Shown here: positions 2,001 through 55,804 of the stretch, in pieces | Numbering within the stretch: the first letter of the stretch is position 1 | How the letters are laid out: each line of letters begins with the position of its first letter | Source: Eubacteriales bacterium | GTDB taxonomy: Bacteria > Bacillota > Clostridia > Oscillospirales > CAG-272 | NCBI GenBank assembly: GCA_045126855.1 | Contig: JBGVPG010000032.1 | Location: 5,274-69,273 of the forward strand | Direction of reading: 5' to 3' | DNA length: 64,000 nucleotides | Made by a program: the position numbers and the translations under genes | The notes under the pieces: model-generated | Databases searched by the model: none | Seen by the model: the letters and a program-made list of their open reading frames with translations, nothing else | What the model was told of the DNA's origin: nothing

Positions 2001-3401
2001 GTGGCAACAAAAACCAAGCGTGATCTGACAGAGGGTCCTCTGTTCCTACCAATGATATATTTCGTCATTCCCATCATTCTCACGGGAATGCTGCAGATAC
2101 TTTACAATATGGCCGACAACATCGTAGTCGGCAGATTTTCCGGCGACGACCTTGCGCTGGCGGCGGTTGGCTCCACCTCGTCACTCTCTAACCTCATTAT
2201 CAACCTGCTTATGGGTATTGCAGGTGGCTCGGGAGTTGTTATTGCCCAGAGCTACGGAGCAAAAAATCACGAAAAGCTCTCCAAAGCAGTACATACCTCG
2301 ATGTTCTTCTCGGTTATCGGCGGTATTGCGTTCTGCATCATCGGTCTCCTCATCTCACGCCCTGCCCTGGCCCTTATGGATACCAAGGATGAGCTTATGA
2401 GCCGAGCGGTATTGTATCTTCGCATAATCTGTCTCGGTATTCCCGCATCGTCGGTCTACAACTTCGGTGCGGCCACCCTGAGATCGGTTGGAGACTCCAA
2501 GACGCCACTTATAATTCTCGCCTCTACCGGACTCGTTAACGTTATTCTGAACCTTATTTTCGTTATAGTTTTCGGAATGTCTGTTGACGGTGTTGCCCTT
2601 GCGACCATTGTCTCCCAGTATGTTTCAGCGGTAACGGTCGTTATTATTCTGATGAAGAGAAAAAATCAGCCATACGCCCTTGAAAAGGAAAAGCTTGGAA
2701 TCGACAAGGAGCTTCTCGGTGAAATTCTGAGACTTGGACTTCCTGCAGGCTTCCAGGGTACTCTCTTCTCTATTTCCAACATAATTTTGACCTCGGGCAT
2801 GAATACCCTTGCAACCACGGATATTGCAGGCAAGACCATTGCAATCAATATCGAGGGTCTGGTTTACACCGCAATGAACTCCTACCTCCATGCCTCCACC
2901 ACCTTCACCGGTCAGAACTTCGGTGCAAAAAAGCCGGAGAGAATCAAAAAATCCATTCTCTACGCCGTTCTTCAAGCCTTTATCGTCGGCTTCTTCGGCG
3001 GAATGCTGCTACTGGCCTTTGGTGAACCCCTGGCAAAGCTTTACATTGACGTAAACGATCCCAACCGTGATCTGGTGCTTGCGGCAGCCCTTGAGCTTAT
3101 GACATTTATGCTCTCCTGCTATTTCCTGTGCGGAATTATGGATACCCTTTCGGGTGCACTCCGTGGTCTTGGCTACTCGATGATACCGATGATCGTGTCA
3201 ATTGGTGCGATATGTGTGCTGAGAGCGATATGGGTGTTCTTTGTCTTCCCCTTGGAGCAGTTCCACAGCCTGATCGGCATCTACACGATCTACCCAATCT
3301 CTTGGTCGCTGGGTATTTTGTTCAACTCATTAGCTCTGCTCATTCTCTACCCCAGGGTCAAGCGAAAGCTCATTTCAAAAACAAATATTGTGGCAGAATA
3401 A
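2001..3401 (+). CDS. MATE family efflux transporter
   Basis: 466 aa, about 12 hydrophobic segments, and a typical MATE N-terminus (LTEGPL...ILTGMLQILYNMADNIVVGRF). GTG start preceded by GGGAGG. Confidence 0.85.
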   Translation: MATKTKRDLTEGPLFLPMIYFVIPIILTGMLQILYNMADNIVVGRFSGDDLALAAVGSTSSLSNLIINLLMGIAGGSGVVIAQSYGAKNHEKLSKAVHTSMFFSVIGGIAFCIIGLLISRPALALMDTKDELMSRAVLYLRIICLGIPASSVYNFGAATLRSVGDSKTPLIILASTGLVNVILNLIFVIVFGMSVDGVALATIVSQYVSAVTVVIILMKRKNQPYALEKEKLGIDKELLGEILRLGLPAGFQGTLFSISNIILTSGMNTLATTDIAGKTIAINIEGLVYTAMNSYLHASTTFTGQNFGAKKPERIKKSILYAVLQAFIVGFFGGMLLLAFGEPLAKLYIDVNDPNRDLVLAAALELMTFMLSCYFLCGIMDTLSGALRGLGYSMIPMIVSIGAICVLRAIWVFFVFPLEQFHSLIGIYTIYPISWSLGILFNSLALLILYPRVKRKLISKTNIVAE

Positions 3402-3863: not shown

Positions 3864-4430
3864 TTAATTTTCAGAGCCTCCCGAAAGCTCGGCACGAAGG
3901 TGGCGGAAAAGCCTAGCCTTTGCGTTATCGACCGACTTTGGCGTGCGACCGAGTGCCTTTGCAATAGCCGCGGTCTTATAGCCCTGAATATGAAGAAGTA
4001 AAACGCTGTATTCGTAGTCCGAGAGCAGGTCCCTTGCCGATTTGAGCTGGCGGTCAAAGGTCTCTCTTTCCACTATCCGTTTCTCGGGACTCTCACCGTC
4101 TGCAACCATCTCGACGTCGTACTCATCAAGCTTTGGCAGGTTGTCCGTCGCACGGAGAAGGTCGACAATACGATTGCGCACGCATATACGTGCAAACAGA
4201 CCGAAGGTAACCTCCTTTTGATTCAAATCATACTTTTGCGCTGCAAGATGGAGGGCAACGCATGCCTCGGAAAAAAGCTCCGAGGGGTCAAGACCCGAGG
4301 AATCAAAGCCCGAGATGACCTTTCGCATCATAGGAGTATATCTCTGCACAAGCTCGTCAAAAGCCGAGTCGTCACGCTCTCTGCAAAGCAGAATAAGCTC
4401 CCCTATTTCGCAGTTTTCGTACAAAATCAT
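3864..4430 (-). CDS. Sigma-70 family RNA polymerase sigma factor, SigH-like
   Basis: 188 aa with region 2 (SAFDELVQRYTPMMRKV) and a region 4 HTH (GYKTAAIAKALGRTPKSVDNAKARLFRHL). It aligns by eye with Bacillus SigH (FGLFARICVRNRIVDLL vs FKAFAELCITRQIITAI; LLSDYEYSVLLLHIQG vs LLSDLERKVLVLYLDG). Confidence 0.75.
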   Translation of the reverse strand: MILYENCEIGELILLCRERDDSAFDELVQRYTPMMRKVISGFDSSGLDPSELFSEACVALHLAAQKYDLNQKEVTFGLFARICVRNRIVDLLRATDNLPKLDEYDVEMVADGESPEKRIVERETFDRQLKSARDLLSDYEYSVLLLHIQGYKTAAIAKALGRTPKSVDNAKARLFRHLRAELSGGSEN

Positions 4431-4577: not shown

Positions 4578-5132
4578 TTAGGATAAATATTCAATCCTGC
4601 CCGTTGCGGAAAAGAGAACGCCACGGTAAACGCCGTCGGGCTTTGCCTCAAAATTGCGCTTGATCTGCTCTGCCTCTGCAAGGGAATTAACGGCAAGAGA
4701 GGTCTGCATAAGTTCACCGTATCTGTCGTGTGCCTCAAGGGTCACACGGTATCTGCCACCCTCTGTACGCTCGATATAGGACTTTATCGTAGTCTCGCTC
4801 TTGGTAAGAGATACGTGCTTTATTGCCGAGCGCAGGCTTCTTTCACGGAAGCCCTCGTCAAGATTATCGTAAAGCTCTGCAGCAACTGCCCTGCCCTTAT
4901 CCGAGATCATATAGTATTTAACGCCGTCCACCTCGTCAAAGAGAAGATGACCGGAGTCAAAAAGCTCGCCGAGGCACTGCTCGTAGTCAAGGGTAATCTC
5001 GTCGGTATTTTCCGACACGATTGTCATAATAGTATCGGTGTCGATGGGATAGCGAATATTGTCAAGAAGGAAAAGTAAAAACACCTTTAGGTCGGTGATT
5101 GTATTAAGACCGAATTTTTTGTTTCTTTTCAT
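4578..5132 (-). CDS. Conserved hypothetical protein, DUF4364-like
   Basis: 184 aa. The pattern (FLLFLLDNIRYPIDTDTIMTIV...LGELFDSGHLLF) resembles the small clostridial DUF4364 family. This assignment is from memory only. Confidence 0.55.
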   Translation of the reverse strand: MKRNKKFGLNTITDLKVFLLFLLDNIRYPIDTDTIMTIVSENTDEITLDYEQCLGELFDSGHLLFDEVDGVKYYMISDKGRAVAAELYDNLDEGFRERSLRSAIKHVSLTKSETTIKSYIERTEGGRYRVTLEAHDRYGELMQTSLAVNSLAEAEQIKRNFEAKPDGVYRGVLFSATGRIEYLS

Positions 5133-10005: not shown

Positions 10006-10495
10006 TTTCAGTTTCCTTTTTTGAAATAAGATCTCTCAGGAAGAATACAAGGTAAACGGCAAAGGACAGCGTGATAAAGCCTAAGGTGTCTATCCACACG
10101 TCGAGGATTGCCGGGCCACGTCCCGAGAAGACCTGTATAGTCTCGTCAATAAACGCCACGCCGTGACCCACCAAGGGGGTATATGGCATGAGCCTCATAG
10201 GGGCTCTGGCAAAAAGCGAGATGAAAAGTGATATTTCAGCGCCCAGGACACCGTACTCGGCAAAATGGGCGATTTTTCTCAGATTATTCAGTATAAATGC
10301 GCCAAGGGGCTTGTCGTAGGAAAAGAATTCTTCAAGAAATTCTCTCACCGCCCCACTCTCTGCCCCGGAGATCTCTCTCGAAAGCATCGATTGAATGAAA
10401 ATAAAGGCAACGGTAATGCCGATAAGGCTCAAAAGCGATATTGCAATTCTCCGTTTTGCATTAGAAAGGTCGCTGAGTTTATAAAACATAATCAA
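9998..10495 (-). CDS. VanZ family membrane protein
   Basis: 165 aa, 4 hydrophobic segments, and VanZ signatures KIAHFAEYGVLG and DETIQVFSGRGPAILDVWIDTLG. It overlaps the downstream gene by 8 nt. Confidence 0.75.
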   Translation of the reverse strand: MIMFYKLSDLSNAKRRIAISLLSLIGITVAFIFIQSMLSREISGAESGAVREFLEEFFSYDKPLGAFILNNLRKIAHFAEYGVLGAEISLFISLFARAPMRLMPYTPLVGHGVAFIDETIQVFSGRGPAILDVWIDTLGFITLSFAVYLVFFLRDLISKKETENG

Positions 10496-20347: not shown

Positions 20348-20376
20348 TTGACAAGTGGAATGTCTTGTGCTATAAT
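20348..20376 (+). promoter_or_regulatory. Consensus promoter for rplM-rpsI (TTGACA-17-TATAAT, extended TGc)
   Basis: TTGACA at 20348..20353, TATAAT at 20371..20376, about 45 nt upstream of the rplM ATG. Confidence 0.65.
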
Positions 20377-20861: not shown

Positions 20862-21263
20862 ATGTATACAAGTGCTAAACCCTATTTCTACGGAACCGGT
20901 AGAAGAAAGAAGTCCGTTGCTAGAGTTCGTCTCTATCCCGGCACCGGCGCTATCACCATCAACGGCAGAGATATCGCTGATTACTTCGGTCTTGAGACCA
21001 TGAAGCTTATTGTTAACCAGCCCTTCGGCGTTACCGATACCGTTGGCAAGTTCGACGTTGTTGTTAACGTAAACGGCGGTGGCTTCTCCGGCCAGGCAGG
21101 TGCAATCCGTCACGGTGTTTCTCGTGCACTCCTTTCTGCAGACGAGACCTACAAGCCCCTCCTCAAGAAGGCCGGCTTCCTTACTCGTGATCCTCGTATG
21201 AAGGAGAGAAAGAAGTACGGACTCAAGGGCGCTCGTCGTGCTCCTCAGTTCTCGAAGAGATAA
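20862..21263 (+). CDS. rpsI: 30S ribosomal protein S9
   Basis: [24 protein letters not shown]... ending in RRAPQFSKR. The ATG at 20862 follows a GGGAGG RBS. Confidence 0.95.
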
Positions 21264-21284
21264 TTTCGACCTTTGGTCGAATAC

Positions 21285-21318
21285 AAAAAATGCTCAACTT
21301 CGGTTGGGCATTTTTTAT
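21285..21318 (+). terminator. rplM-rpsI intrinsic terminator
   Basis: Stem TGCTCAAC (21291..21298), loop TTCG, stem GTTGGGCA, then TTTTTT. A smaller hairpin, TTCGACC-ttt-GGTCGAA, precedes it. Confidence 0.8.
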
Positions 21319-21342
21319 TATCTCTTCGACGGACTGAGGAGC

Positions 21343-21525
21343 AGTTATATTCGCCTGCAGCGAGTGATATTGCTACGCAGTGATATTTGGCTTACGCCAA
21401 GTGATATTCGCTTTGCGAGTTTTAGTGGCGAATATAATATCACTGTGAGCATAATTTGCAATTCAAATTTGCGAACAATATCACTACGAGCAAAGCGAGT
21501 AATATCACTGCGAAGCAATATCACT
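21343..21525. repeat. Array 1 of mini-hairpin + ATATCACT units (4 inverted + 4 direct)
   Basis: AGTTATAT at 21343; AGTGATAT at 21363, 21379 and 21400; ATATCACT at 21437, 21478, 21502 and 21518. Each abuts a short GC-clamped palindrome. Confidence 0.85.
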
Positions 21526-21594
21526 ATGCATAATCGATAAAAATTTGCTTTAATCAAAAAGGGCGGTTCAATTTGTAAAAACTCCGCCGTCAAT

Positions 21595-21725
21595 ATAATC
21601 AAACGAAGCGAATCGACGAGTTTGCTCGTCAGCGAGCGAGTGCAGATTGCTCTGCGAACGTTTTGCGAGTAGCAAAACAAGGTGCGTCGTACCGCCTCGC
21701 AAGAGGCAAAGTTCGCAATGAGTAT
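21595..21725 (+). repeat. 131-bp structured repeat, copy A
   Basis: It aligns along its full length with 22631..22761 at roughly four identities in five (by eye). Hairpins are GACGAG-tttg-CTCGTC, GTTTTGC-gagta-GCAAAAC and GCCTC-gcaa-GAGGC. Confidence 0.8.
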
Positions 21726-21798
21726 TTACTTTTTGCCGTTTTTATGGTATAATACAACTAATCGATAAACTTGAATTTGACGAGGGATGTGGTTTTTA

Positions 21799-22119
21799 AT
21801 GATAGATGACAAGATTAAAAATAGCATAGTAGAAAAATTTGAAATAGCTTCTAAGGAATTCAACTTTAATTTCGTTACTCCATATTGTACAGGCAAAAAT
21901 CATAAGTTGTGTTTTTTCGGTTATTTGTTTAAAGATAATCCTGAAAAAGGGGTAATAATTGATATAATTTGTGACTTTAAAGATAGAAATATCGAAAAGC
22001 GAAAGTATTGTGAAGATAACAATCTGTTTTATAGCTGTTTGTATATAGAACCTTTACTTGGAGAATACAAACGTAGCTATTTTAGTAAAATGCTAAAAGA
22101 TTGGAGATATGAGTTTTAA
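21799..22119 (+). CDS. Small hypothetical protein (AT-rich cassette gene 1)
   Basis: ORF 21787..22119. K/N/F/Y-rich with A/T-ending codons, unlike the neighbours. Start uncertain (21787 or 21799). Upstream GAATTTGACGAGG box. Confidence 0.5.
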   Translation: MIDDKIKNSIVEKFEIASKEFNFNFVTPYCTGKNHKLCFFGYLFKDNPEKGVIIDIICDFKDRNIEKRKYCEDNNLFYSCLYIEPLLGEYKRSYFSKMLKDWRYEF

Positions 22120-22157: not shown

Positions 22158-22544
22158 ATGAAATTTAACGATTATTGGAAAATTCCAACAAATGCAAAGC
22201 AATATTTTTCACCCAAATATGAAAAAAAGTTAAAAGAGAAATATGGTGTGTGGTATACTTTTCACACTTTTTTGTCGATTTTAATACTCTTTATTCCTTT
22301 GGTAATTTTCTTTGTTATTTCTCCATCTAATGCATTTAATCCAAGCACTCAAATGGATAATATTATTGGTGGTATAGGTGGAATTATTGGGGTAATAGGA
22401 TCATTCTCTATCGGTGTTGGTTTGGTAAATGTTTTTATGTGTTTTATCAAACAGTATTTAGGTCATTGGGTTACTATTCTTACAATTGTTGGCGGAATAC
22501 TATTAGATATATTGGCCTTATTTGTGTTTTCGTTTGTTAGTTAA
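22158..22544 (+). CDS. Small hypothetical membrane protein (AT-rich cassette gene 2)
   Basis: 128 aa with three hydrophobic segments. It has the same GAATTTGACGAGG box (with a GAGGTGA RBS) upstream. Confidence 0.55.
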   Translation: MKFNDYWKIPTNAKQYFSPKYEKKLKEKYGVWYTFHTFLSILILFIPLVIFFVISPSNAFNPSTQMDNIIGGIGGIIGVIGSFSIGVGLVNVFMCFIKQYLGHWVTILTIVGGILLDILALFVFSFVS

Positions 22545-22630
22545 ATTCCAATTTATCGAGCCGAATAGGCGTTGAGTGCCCGTGTGATTTTGGTGCAACA
22601 CTTTATGTTAGCGTACTCACGATATTCACG

Positions 22631-22761
22631 ATAATCAAATAAAGCGAGTCGGCAAGCTTGCTTGTCAGCGAGCAAGTGTAGATTGCTCCTCGAGTGTTTT
22701 GCAAACAGCAAAACAGAGTGCGTAGCACCACCTCGCAAGAGGGGTAACTCGCAAGGAGCAT
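22631..22761 (+). repeat. 131-bp structured repeat, copy B
   Basis: Hairpins are GGCAAG-cttg-CTTGTC (with a G.T pair), GTTTTGC-aaaca-GCAAAAC and CCTC-gcaa-GAGG, at positions equivalent to copy A. Confidence 0.8.
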
Positions 22762-22913
22762 ATCAAACAGTATTGCTAAAACTCCAAGAGAAAATTAAAA
22801 GTTCATAACGAAAAGATATACATAATTTCCCTACCCCGTAATTTTGTATTTACAAACAGTTCCTTTTGTGATATAATAGGACAGACAATTTTTCTAACCG
22901 ACAGGAGTGCATC

Positions 22914-28853: not shown

Positions 28854-28864
28854 TTACAAAGTAT

Positions 28865-29003
28865 CTACCCGTGGCACAGCTGGATAGCGCGCAAGACTCC
28901 GCATACCGCTAGCGGTATATTGCCGTGCGAGGAGATTGTACCTGCAATTAGTACAACAAGCGGAATTACCACAAATACTGCCCCGAGCGGCAAACTCTGA
29001 AGG
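28865..29003 (+). pseudogene. Interrupted, degenerate tRNA-Arg(CCG)-like copy in the tRNA leader
   Basis: 28865..28901 matches the first 37 nt of the downstream tRNA at 33 of 37 positions. A 92-nt insert follows the anticodon, then ACTCTGAAGG (28994..29003) resumes the match. There is no T-arm or 3' acceptor strand. Confidence 0.55.
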
Positions 29004-29035
29004 TATCGCGTTAGCGATCCCAAACAACTCAATAT

Positions 29036-29112
29036 CTACCTATGGCACAGCTGGATAGCGCGTCAGACTCCGACTCTGAAGGTCCGCGGTTCGAATCCGC
29101 GTAGGTAGGCCA
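29036..29112 (+). tRNA. tRNA-Arg (anticodon CCG), CCA encoded
   Basis: Manual cloverleaf: acceptor CTACCTA/TAGGTAG; D arm GCAC-AGCTGGATA-GCGC (one A.C mismatch); anticodon arm TCAGA-CTCCGAC-TCTGA; variable loop AGGTC; T arm CGCGG-TTCGAAT-CCGCG; discriminator G; CCA. Total 77 nt. Confidence 0.9.
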
Positions 29113-37538: not shown

Positions 37539-37576
37539 AAAAAGGACGAGATATCACTCTCGTCCTTTTGTTTTAT
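37539..37576 (+). terminator. Intrinsic terminator whose 8-nt loop is ATATCACT
   Basis: Stem AAAGGACGAG (37541..37550), loop ATATCACT (37551..37558), stem CTCGTCCTTT, then TGTTTT. Confidence 0.8.
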
Positions 37577-54931: not shown

Positions 54932-54968
54932 AAAAAAAGACACGAGAAAATTTTCTCGTGTCTTTTTT
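54932..54968. terminator. Palindromic terminator downstream of yebC (AGACACGAGAAAATTTTCTCGTGTCT core)
   Basis: Perfect 13-bp arms at 54938..54950 and 54951..54963, flanked by A and T runs. Confidence 0.85.
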
Positions 54969-54971
54969 AAC

Positions 54972-55076
54972 GTTTGCGTAGCAAACATATCACTCGACTG
55001 TTGTCGAATATCACTTTTGCAAAGCAAAAATATCACTATTGCGAAGCAATAATATAACGTTTGCCATAGGCAAACA
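54972..55076. repeat. Array 2 of mini-hairpin + ATATCACT units (5 units, one orientation)
   Basis: GTTTGC-gta-GCAAAC ATATCACT; CGAC-tgtt-GTCG AATATCACT; TTTGC-aaa-GCAAA AATATCACT; ATTGC-gaa-GCAAT AATATAAC; GTTTGCC-ata-GGCAAAC. Confidence 0.85.
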
Positions 55077-55078
55077 TC

Positions 55079-55804
55079 TTAGTTGTCCCAGTTGTGGTAA
55101 ACGGCGTTTACGTCATCATCCTCGTTGAACTTGTCGAGCATCTTTTCCATATTGGCGATGTCGTCCTCGTTGATAAGCTCAACGTAGGTGGAGGGAACCT
55201 TTGCAAGGTCAGCGGTATTGATCTGATATCCGAGACCGATGATGGCGTCACGAACGGTGTCAAGATCAGCAGGATCGGTGTAAATGGTGTACTCACCCTC
55301 GTCGCTTCTGATATCCTCAGCGCCTGCCTCAAGTGCGTCCTCCATAATCTTATCCTCGTCGATCTCCTCGTCCTCGTCAACGATGGTGATAACGCCCTTC
55401 TCCTCAAAGAGGTAGCCTACGCAGCCGTTCTGTCCAAGGTTTCCGCCGTACTTAGAGAATGCGGCACGAACGTTACCTGCGGTACGGTTACGGTTATCCG
55501 TCTGTGTCTCAACGATGATTGCAACACCGCTGGGGCCGTAGCCCTCGTATACGATCTCCTCGAAGTTGATATCCGAGCTGTCGGTAAACTTCTTGATAGT
55601 ACGCTGGATGTTATCGTTAGGCACGTTATTTGCCTTTGCCTTCGCAATAAGGTCACGAAGCTTAGAGTTGTTGTTGGGGTCGGGACCGCCTGCCTTAATG
55701 GCAACAGCCATTTCCTTACCGATCTTGGTAAAGATCTTGGCCTTGGCAGCGTCTGCCTTCTCCTTCTTATGCTTGATATTATTCCACTTAGAATGTCCGG
55801 ACAT
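55079..55804 (-). CDS. yebC: YebC/PmpR family DNA-binding transcriptional regulator
   Basis: MSGHSKWNNIKHKKEKADAAKAKIFTK..., the canonical YebC N-terminus. 241 aa. Confidence 0.9.
   Translation of the reverse strand: MSGHSKWNNIKHKKEKADAAKAKIFTKIGKEMAVAIKAGGPDPNNNSKLRDLIAKAKANNVPNDNIQRTIKKFTDSSDINFEEIVYEGYGPSGVAIIVETQTDNRNRTAGNVRAAFSKYGGNLGQNGCVGYLFEEKGVITIVDEDEEIDEDKIMEDALEAGAEDIRSDEGEYTIYTDPADLDTVRDAIIGLGYQINTADLAKVPSTYVELINEDDIANMEKMLDKFNEDDDVNAVYHNWDN

Follow-up and report, generated by a model that had tools for sequence, protein, structure and literature searches.

A mirrored Gut-1 hairpin array behind the rplM-rpsI operon of a Clostridia genome, and its relatives in gut and rumen bacteria

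Gut-1 (RF01706) is a family of short hairpins joined by constant linkers, and since 2010 it has stood in Rfam as an orphan small RNA (sRNA) without host, context or function. Here we analyse an array of this kind at positions 21343-21525 of a 64,000-nucleotide stretch, called the window below, of contig JBGVPG010000032.1 from an Eubacteriales bacterium (GCA_045126855.1). Judged from its sequence, the array is a complete member of the Gut-1 repeat family in mirrored form, one arm of hairpin units being followed by a second arm of units in the opposite orientation. The family itself is known and uncharacterised, and its composite mirrored form is previously undescribed. As to its nature, we give an even chance to an extragenic repeat resembling the repetitive extragenic palindromes (REP) and bacterial interspersed mosaic elements (BIME), which would fold as a single strand behind strong terminators and which at this locus would be largely untranscribed and partly decayed.

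Gut-1 identity and anatomy of the window array

A scan at the Rfam gathering threshold identified RF01706 at 21342-21412 on the + strand (55.2 bits) and at 54982-55060 on the - strand (53 bits), the curated gathering score of the family being 50 bits. The original prediction, made from the letters alone, had held that the array fits no nameable repeat family, and this claim falls since both arrays lie above the gathering score. Scored alone, the right arm of the first array yields 26.5 bits on the - strand, a weak match under that score. The Gut-1 model consists of three hairpins with GUGAAAU linkers, and the window carries the linker variant GUGAUAU. The motif was described from human-gut metagenomes (Weinberg et al., 2010, Genome Biol 11:R31; PMC2864571) on the basis of 43 sequences, all from human gut and none from a sequenced organism, and it was classed from covariation as a probable non-coding RNA. 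The published alignment already holds mirrored members beside a tRNA, and the left arm alone was modelled (PMC2864571). Our literature search found no Gut-1 paper later than this 2010 description.

With both strands counted, the window contains 12 copies of the 8-mer ATATCACT where 1.5 would be expected and no more than 4 appeared in any of 100 shuffles, which confirms the enrichment at the scale of 64 kb. Ten of these 12 copies are clustered in two arrays, the first with seven exact 8-mers and AGTTATAT, the second with three 8-mers at 54987-55037. The two lone copies, at 10227 and in the terminator loop at 37551, are as many as chance predicts, and the latter, which had been noted alongside the arrays, is a chance copy. 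The proposed layout of eight units agrees with the sequence throughout: AGTTATAT lies at 21343, AGTGATAT at 21363, 21379 and 21400, and ATATCACT at 21437, 21478, 21502 and 21518, and the units, their mirror symmetry and the GNA-type mini-hairpins are all present. The hairpins that separate the 8-mers are TCGC-ctgca-GCGA, TGC-tac-GCA, TTGGC-ttac-GCCAA, TCGC-ttt-GCGA and TGC-gaa-GCA, together with an imperfect one, TACGAGC-aaa-GCGAGTA.

All parts of the window copy are given on the + strand. The first, degenerate linker L0 (AGTTATAT, 21343-21350) aligns with GTTATAT, ACGAAAT and ACTCTAT of relatives. The 5' strand of a helix that we call P0 (TTATATTCGCC, 21345-21355) was located by inverted-repeat search and covariation, and its last four to five bases can pair instead with 21360-21363 to form hairpin 1. 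The left arm (21342-21412), which is the Rfam match, comprises hairpins 1-3 with GTGATAT linkers at 21364-21370, 21380-21386 and 21401-21407, and hairpin 4 follows at 21408-21418. At the centre of the element (21419-21437) a degenerate linker, GTTTTAGT, precedes the 3' strand of P0, GGCGAATATAA (21427-21437). The right arm (21437-21525), with its ATATCAC linkers of opposite orientation starting at the four positions of ATATCACT, contains an irregular segment at 21444-21477, a tandem G·A hairpin at 21485-21501 and the mini-hairpin TGCGAAGCA at 21509-21517; on account of the irregular segment we regard this arm as partly decayed. A promoter-like site on the - strand, 21461-21434 (TTGCAA, 16 nt, TATTAT, with TG), lies inside the element and faces leftward, across the left arm, to the bidirectional rpsI terminator. 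In T-type elements the centre is invariably GAATATAATATCAC, which includes TATAAT on the top strand.

It had been suggested that the whole array could fold as one long hairpin, and for the window copy this part of the prediction stands. A 196-nt stretch can take such a fold as RNA (-75.5 kcal/mol, z -6.5) and as DNA (-47 kcal/mol, z -7.6), because part of the left arm recurs, inverted and at 96%, as a 25-nt piece of the right arm. In relatives the arms have nothing but the linkers in common, and the long hairpin is therefore a peculiarity of this copy that conflicts with the covarying P0; as the fold of the family it is ruled out. The pairing put forward as central, between 21400 and 21428, gives way to that of 21345-21355 with 21427-21437, that is P0, which is the long-range pairing conserved in the family. 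A "ladder" fold, in which left linkers would pair with right linkers, is likewise ruled out for the family since P0 closes the left arm.

The second array had been noticed 33 kb away and is indeed present, as a single arm on the - strand (54982-55060) with three exact and two degenerate linkers. It is flanked by the stop codon of a yebC/TACO1-family gene (55082-55804, -; Pfam) and by a bidirectional terminator at 54940-54968.

Several other kinds of repeat were considered and rejected. Clustered regularly interspaced short palindromic repeats (CRISPR) are identical repeats of 23-47 nt with unique spacers, whereas the constant part of the array is 7-8 nt long, its variable part is self-complementary and 8-20 nt long, and its halves are mirrored, just as had been argued originally; no cas-like genes were found among the array neighbours or the window genes examined. 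A simple tandem repeat is ruled out on anatomy. An intrinsic terminator is ruled out as no unit has a T-run behind it and the true terminators are separate (21285-21316 and 54940-54968). Type III toxin-antitoxin loci of the ToxI kind combine near-identical repeats of about 36 nt with a terminator and an endoRNase toxin, and do not match array units that differ in sequence and length and are followed by diverse genes.

Architecture, strand signals and context of the family

Species genomes, one per species, were scanned for three GTGAWAT linkers at a spacing of 8-20 nt, which recovered at least 120 loci. The family counts used throughout (84 arrays, 32 mirrored elements and 233 hairpins) are those among the matches listed of these loci; about 84 are true hairpin arrays, the remainder being chance matches or simple repeats. 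Hosts among the matches listed are nearly all metagenome-assembled genomes (MAGs) from gut or rumen, labelled Clostridia, Eubacteriales, Oscillospiraceae, Acutalibacteraceae, Ruminococcus/Ruminococcaceae or Christensenellaceae. They include three Akkermansia-type MAGs, and the one that was re-scanned, L006, is above the Rfam threshold; at 2314-3400 it carries three Gut-1 arrays 440-500 nt apart, the first two of which are followed by a co-oriented hairpin array with another constant linker, CGAGATT, and no mirrored arm. The window sequence itself was found in bovine and other gut metagenomes. Among plasmid and phage collections there was no plasmid match and one unannotated metagenomic phage record, and a scan of viral contigs gave mainly chance matches, with true arrays in four loci (L215, L235, L259 and L318). 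An element also follows rpsI in the closest relative by RpsI (L121, 90% identity), with different hairpins and the linker GTGAAGT, and none was found after rpsI in relatives with RpsI identity of 84% or less.

Each repeating unit combines a short GC-clamped hairpin, whose sequence is free, with the constant 7-mer GTGAWAT behind it. In 32 of 32 mirrored elements the GTGAWAT arm comes first and the ATWTCAC arm second, and the reverse order does not occur. The 5' part consists, in order, of a long perfect stem-loop (SL0), "CA" with a degenerate linker, hairpin 1 and two to three more units; the 3' part consists of a degenerate linker (GTTAAGG-like), a P0 segment of 10-12 nt and three to four units of opposite orientation. 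Beyond the right arm, elements are often followed by another terminator or by a small gene that has a TGnTATAAT promoter. Beside tRNAs SL0 carries an A-run and a T-run and is therefore a bidirectional terminator. The left module is steady in length (99-108 nt), and the P0 complement is exact over at least 7 nt in 29 of the 32 elements, with about ten different sequences. In an alignment of 27 left modules 93.9% of P0 cells are paired, against 34-50% in slid controls, and changes on both sides occur at 8 of 11 pairs; hairpin 1, the alternative to P0, is 98.5% paired and covaries at all five of its pairs. In all mirrored elements that were tested, the Rfam match coincides with the left module and has the orientation of the upstream gene.

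The linker variant is identical in both arms of each element (18 A/A, 14 T/T), further variants being GTGAAGT/ACTTCAC in L121 and ATGAAAT/ATTTCAT in L326, and in one genome two variants are found next to each other. Since the left arm is closed by P0, the agreement between the arms is better read as a shared reader of the 7-mer or as concerted evolution than as pairing between the arms. SL0 shows variation of another kind: its loop is reverse-complemented on an unchanged stem between L326 and L336 3249-3291 (TACCG vs CGGTA), and likewise within L118 between 4263-4294 and about 4990-5021 (TTAC vs GTAA), a flip that may have arisen by hairpin-mediated template switching or by recombination between the arms. 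A 24-nt motif, TATCAAAATTA(G/T)AGTCATT(T/A)GCCA, lies directly 5' of SL0 at L118 4949-4989 and at L319 about 2205-2232, in unrelated, non-tRNA contexts.

The 233 non-redundant hairpins have covarying stems and hold 1276 Watson-Crick pairs, 9 G:T and 14 A:C, and wobble is therefore tolerated no better than mismatch on either strand; the comparison of G:U with A:C gives no signal for a transcribed strand. The closing pair is C-G in 194 hairpins (83%), the loops read on the ATWTCAC strand are GAA, GCA, AAA, GTA, GTAA and GCAA, and GCGAAGC recurs many times. The d(C-GNA-G) motif is a hallmark of single-stranded DNA, and DNA mini-hairpins of the form d(GCGNAGC) were reportedly studied by Hirao and co-workers. 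On the top strand of mirrored elements, left-arm loops are TNC in 39 of 52 cases, the 75 right-arm loops include 25 GNA and 22 GNNA, and the G·A/A·G mismatch cells, 28 in number, are confined to the right arm (ATWTCAC strand), with a recurrent cGAg/cGAg tandem. Each arm thus has its own favourable strand, the two arms using opposite strands, and in the arm nearest the upstream gene the strand with favourable loops is opposite to the Rfam RNA strand. Such a pattern is compatible with a repeat that is required to fold on both strands.

As for genomic context, 14 of the 32 mirrored elements lie directly behind a tRNA gene and a bidirectional terminator, with 11 tRNA specificities represented, and in all tRNA-linked cases the 3' end of the tRNA faces SL0. 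In L111 the element stands at the end of an rrn operon, in the order 23S, tRNA, tRNA, 5S, tRNA-Asn, element. Among 123 open reading frames (ORFs) flanking arrays in other genomes we found housekeeping genes and no transposase, integrase or Y1/HUH family. Enrichment is confined to one family, PF05635 (four-helix-bundle, "23S rRNA IVS"), with five members that start about 53 nt past the right arm. A crude terminator scan around single-arm arrays gave 7 downstream and 4 upstream, with no clear orientation bias, and gene orientations from longest-ORF calls were dropped as they miscalled the known yebC context.

Metagenome depth points to several copies, the window element being about 5-fold deeper than its flanks and the L118 element about 100-fold deeper than single-copy flanks (570-1360 vs 4-10). 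On transcription, for which a check had been proposed, the window copy and its relatives give different answers. In four bovine metatranscriptomes contig depth drops from 100-2000 over rplM-rpsI to 0-25 over the window array, a figure that includes contributions from all copies in the community. For the single-arm copy an RNA contig extends from the yebC-family gene into the array, and an L046-like mirrored element is represented in three metatranscriptomes by RNA contigs of 792, 1478 and 1498 nt (depth 27-37), which span more than 1.2 kb upstream, SL0 and the whole element and end within about 20 nt of the right boundary. Some copies are thus transcribed; since the assemblies are unstranded, neither strand nor purpose is thereby given.

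A mobile module and the surroundings of the window copy

One mirrored element belongs to a 1015-bp module that is 100% identical between loci save one mismatch. Besides SL0, the mirrored element and a promoter, the module holds a MazG-like gene and, ahead of it, a four-helix-bundle (PF05635) gene, P0012, which is a homologue of the one downstream of L069. Most contigs have its start at the first base past the CCA of tRNA-Pro(cgg), and at another locus it begins just past the CCA of tRNA-Arg(acg); the right end, ..CTCTTTCGCA, is common to both, and at the tRNA-Arg locus the module is followed at once by a second, diverged SL0 and element. In a third context it is preceded by two large serine recombinase genes. 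These contigs show that at least one module led by a mirrored element has been transposed or integrated as a discrete unit; the mobility of the module does not show that the array itself is a recombination site. The module loci are L320, L326, L319, L331 and L336 (about 2232-3250). A circular form of the module would be joined as ..CTCTTTCGCA|GAAAAGAAAC.. if it exists. At the tRNA-Pro locus, precisely the same point is also taken by a serine-recombinase element (L319, with four TGCACCCC repeats) or by prophage-like genes (L331).

Other loci share parts of this arrangement. "CAG" ("..CCAG" or "..GCAG") stands just before SL0 in 15 of 21 surveyed cases, non-tRNA contexts included. Homologues of the L069 downstream gene, which encodes a four-helix bundle, number in the thousands at about 90% identity. 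One to three genes separate the near-identical elements that lie in tandem in L118 and L058, at distances of 0.7 and 2.7 kb, and some metagenome contigs have the promoter part and the cassette end in common and differ in the middle. DNA contigs from runs X49 and X50 link the right end of an L118 element (5187) to the start of SL0 (4999) via TTGACAAAAG. The depth of this junction in X49 is 122 against about 10 for the genome, or 12 times, and it could represent head-to-tail tandem elements or a small circle.

The window copy lies between the rpsI terminator and a low-GC gene cassette, and at this locus the element is probably no small-RNA gene of its own. Upstream are rplM and rpsI (Pfam L13 and S9) with a consensus promoter at 20348-20376 and an intrinsic terminator at 21285-21316 (+), which has a 14-bp stem between an A-run and a T-run and is therefore bidirectional. 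Here this terminator stands in for SL0, lengthened by a 26-nt inverted repeat whose left half is the 3' end of rpsI (21239-21264, +) and whose right half, an inverted copy of that end, adjoins the element (21317-21343, +), the complementary segments being 13 and 11 nt long, each at 100%. The same inverted copy exists in L121, and a shorter form in L123, which has no array; it is therefore ruled out as an insertion footprint.

Downstream of the array a structured repeat of 136 nt occurs twice. A promoter and two small ORFs follow its first copy, and another promoter and then an esterase gene follow its second. The two copies of this hairpin-rich direct repeat (21590-21725 and 22626-22761, 78% identity) bracket a segment of 27-30% GC, each is followed by a TGnTATAAT promoter (21725-21753 and 22849-22877), and no Rfam match was found for them. 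Metagenome contigs skip the repeat, joining 21579-21591 to 21723, and it looks like a second cassette-bounding repeat family. The ORFs between the copies (21787-22119 and 22158-22544) have no Pfam match, and a look-up of the two found a single 1-kb contig and nothing else. Two more families of intergenic hairpin-rich direct repeats, 30035-30101/37655-37721 (79%) and 37583-37639/37727-37783 (95%), occur near the terminator at 37551. Elsewhere in the window, 28862-28901 is a 90% copy, 40 nt long, of the 5' part (29033-29072) of the tRNA-Arg(ccg) gene at 29036-29112; it is located 171 nt upstream and could be either a piece of a tRNA or another tRNA that escaped detection.

Candidate explanations and known systems

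In the explanation that we prefer, the element would be a multi-copy extragenic DNA repeat, kept and spread in the safe gap behind strong terminators, above all those of tRNA, rRNA and ribosomal-protein operons. Its hairpins would form in single-stranded DNA, and also in read-through RNA, the mirror design would provide each strand with one arm in the stable C-GNA-G orientation, and the constant 7-mers would be displayed between the hairpins for a putative trans-acting factor. REP/BIME elements are the nearest known kind, and to that extent the original suggestion of a REP/BIME-like element handled by an HUH enzyme is supported; its second half is not, as the 123 flanking ORFs contain no transposase, integrase or Y1/HUH protein. 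The absence among these neighbours of any mobilising enzyme related to HUH proteins or to the REP-associated tyrosine transposases (RAYT) also weighs against our own explanation, as do several further points. The GTAG-type tetranucleotide of REP is absent, and the stems vary freely within one array whereas REP stems are sequence-conserved within a genome. The multi-copy state was read from metagenome depth and tandem loci. Related copies are transcribed, both the L046-like element and the single-arm copy in a 3' untranslated region (UTR). GNRA loops and tandem (sheared) G·A pairs are RNA motifs too, and stems of Watson-Crick pairs only would be expected equally if RNAs of both strands must fold.

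These last points lead to a possible, clearly less probable explanation, namely a structured RNA, in which P0 would close the left module into a four-way junction and the hairpins of the right arm would act in a transcript. It might serve as a 3'-end cap that blocks exonucleases, as a fail-safe or insulator against read-through out of very strong operons, or as a platform or sponge for an RNA-binding protein that recognises the 7-mer, and the mirror design would serve transcripts from either side. The Rfam matches and the covariation reported by Weinberg et al. (2010; PMC2864571) speak for such an RNA, and the alternative pairing of P0 and hairpin 1 resembles a co-transcriptional switch. An RNA contig enters the single-arm copy, which has a stop codon on one side and a terminator on the other, contigs in three runs cover a mirrored element and stop at its right boundary, many elements have a second terminator behind them, and the arm in Gut-1 sense is always co-directional with the upstream tRNA or rpsI. 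Yet G·U is as rare as A·C on both strands, and in the arm nearest the upstream gene the stable loops and tandem G·A are on the strand complementary to that of Rfam. Most mirrored copies, including that of the window, stand behind a strong terminator without room for a promoter, and over the window copy RNA reaches no more than a few percent of the depth seen over rpsI, although the element is multi-copy in the community. The RNA contigs, moreover, carry no strand information and may include DNA.

It is rather unlikely that the element is a cis-acting recombination site, similar to attC or to the arm of an att site, which leads small gene cassettes and is served by a recombinase supplied in trans. 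Insertion would take place at the CCA end of a tRNA or ahead of an existing element, and variable arrays would build behind stable-RNA operons as integron cassettes do at attI, with a different site. We are equally doubtful of the more specific proposal that the mirrored element and its 5' perfect palindrome form the single-strand-folding cis site of an unrecognised cassette system of gut Clostridia. The identical 1015-bp module placed exactly behind the CCA of two tRNAs with the same right end, and at one locus directly ahead of a second, diverged element, is what such a site would produce. The same holds for the recurrent "..CCAG" or "..GCAG" before SL0 (15/21, with non-tRNA contexts among them), for the serine recombinase and prophage-like genes inserted at the same point, for the tandem element-gene-element arrays of L118 and L058, for the metagenome contigs with common cassette ends and different middles, and for downstream genes that are small, diverse and often low in GC. 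Mobility with precise ends is seen in one module family only, however, no recombinase is consistently linked, and in the window it is rpsI and not a tRNA that precedes the element. Serine integrases can do without arrays of this kind, arm-type binding would leave the hairpins unexplained, and single-arm arrays in 3' UTRs do not fit.

Very improbable, in our estimate, is an array of binding sites for a sequence-specific protein on double-stranded DNA, with incidental hairpins, that would serve as a roadblock, resemble a partition site or regulate the promoter 30-60 bp downstream. It would account for a 7-mer in two orientations, for the same variant in both arms (18 A/A and 14 T/T as well as the GTGAAGT and ATGAAAT types) and for the TGnTATAAT promoter that usually lies past the right arm. 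A duplex binder, however, would need neither the self-complementarity of the spacers, which is kept by two-sided changes, nor their strand-biased loops, and the unit spacing of 8 to 20 nt and the different linker variants within one genome also tell against it.

For Gut-1 the present analysis adds hosts, namely rumen and gut Clostridia of Oscillospirales type and Akkermansia. It also adds a full architecture, roughly double the published motif in size, and a strong positional rule, directly behind tRNA, rRNA and ribosomal-protein operons. The sequence statistics call into question the annotated RNA strand, or RNA itself, as the functional form, and "Gut-1 sRNA" labels from annotation pipelines may mislead whichever explanation holds. 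If the element is a DNA repeat, gut Firmicutes would own a REP/BIME-like system whose enzyme or binding factor can be searched for; if it leads cassettes, there would be a new route of gene shuffling at tRNA loci of very abundant gut bacteria.

Among known systems, the array shares with Gut-1 as published the three short hairpins, the GUGAAAU-type linkers and the origin in gut metagenomes, with both window arrays above threshold. It differs in its linker (GUGAUAU) and in extending beyond the left arm, to which the Rfam model is limited; the mirrored right arm, P0, the 5' stem-loop, the link with tRNA and rRNA ends, the host taxa and the strand asymmetry go unmentioned in the published Gut-1 text. 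The C-GNA-G triloops with C-G closure that dominate one strand of the arrays recall the d(GCGNAGC) mini-hairpins, which are a thermodynamic motif and no genetic element; RNA, too, tolerates such loops and tandem G·A. BOX, Correia and ERIC, which resemble miniature inverted-repeat transposable elements, are likewise modular, intergenic and often co-transcribed, with a variable number of subunits and strong predicted structure; the Gut-1 element lacks transposase-type terminal inverted repeats and target-site duplication, and its subunits are defined by structure and the 7-mer, not by sequence. With integron attC sites it has in common a conserved structure of variable sequence, inverted short core motifs and strand-specific folding, and with cassette arrays the small diverse genes in tandem and the new units at a fixed proximal point. 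Unlike integrons, Gut-1 elements have no RYYYAAC/GTTRRRY cores and no tyrosine recombinase (IntI) among their neighbours, and they consist of many hairpins instead of one bulged hairpin, lie 5' of a promoter-bearing cargo gene and are anchored at tRNA 3' ends. From the REP, BIME and REPIN sequences of Proteobacteria the element differs in its three to four mini-hairpins per arm, its freely varying stems, a 7-mer between the hairpins instead of a 5' GTAG, its polarity with a closed left module, its Clostridia hosts and its flanks without RAYT/HUH genes (123 ORFs). It resembles them as short extragenic palindromes of high copy number at gene 3' ends and terminators, in inverted pairs, passively co-transcribed and with a constant short motif beside each hairpin, and the multi-copy, inverted units typical of REP are seen here in two arrays within 64 kb, a 5- to 100-fold depth and a fixed polarity in 32 of 32 mirrored elements.

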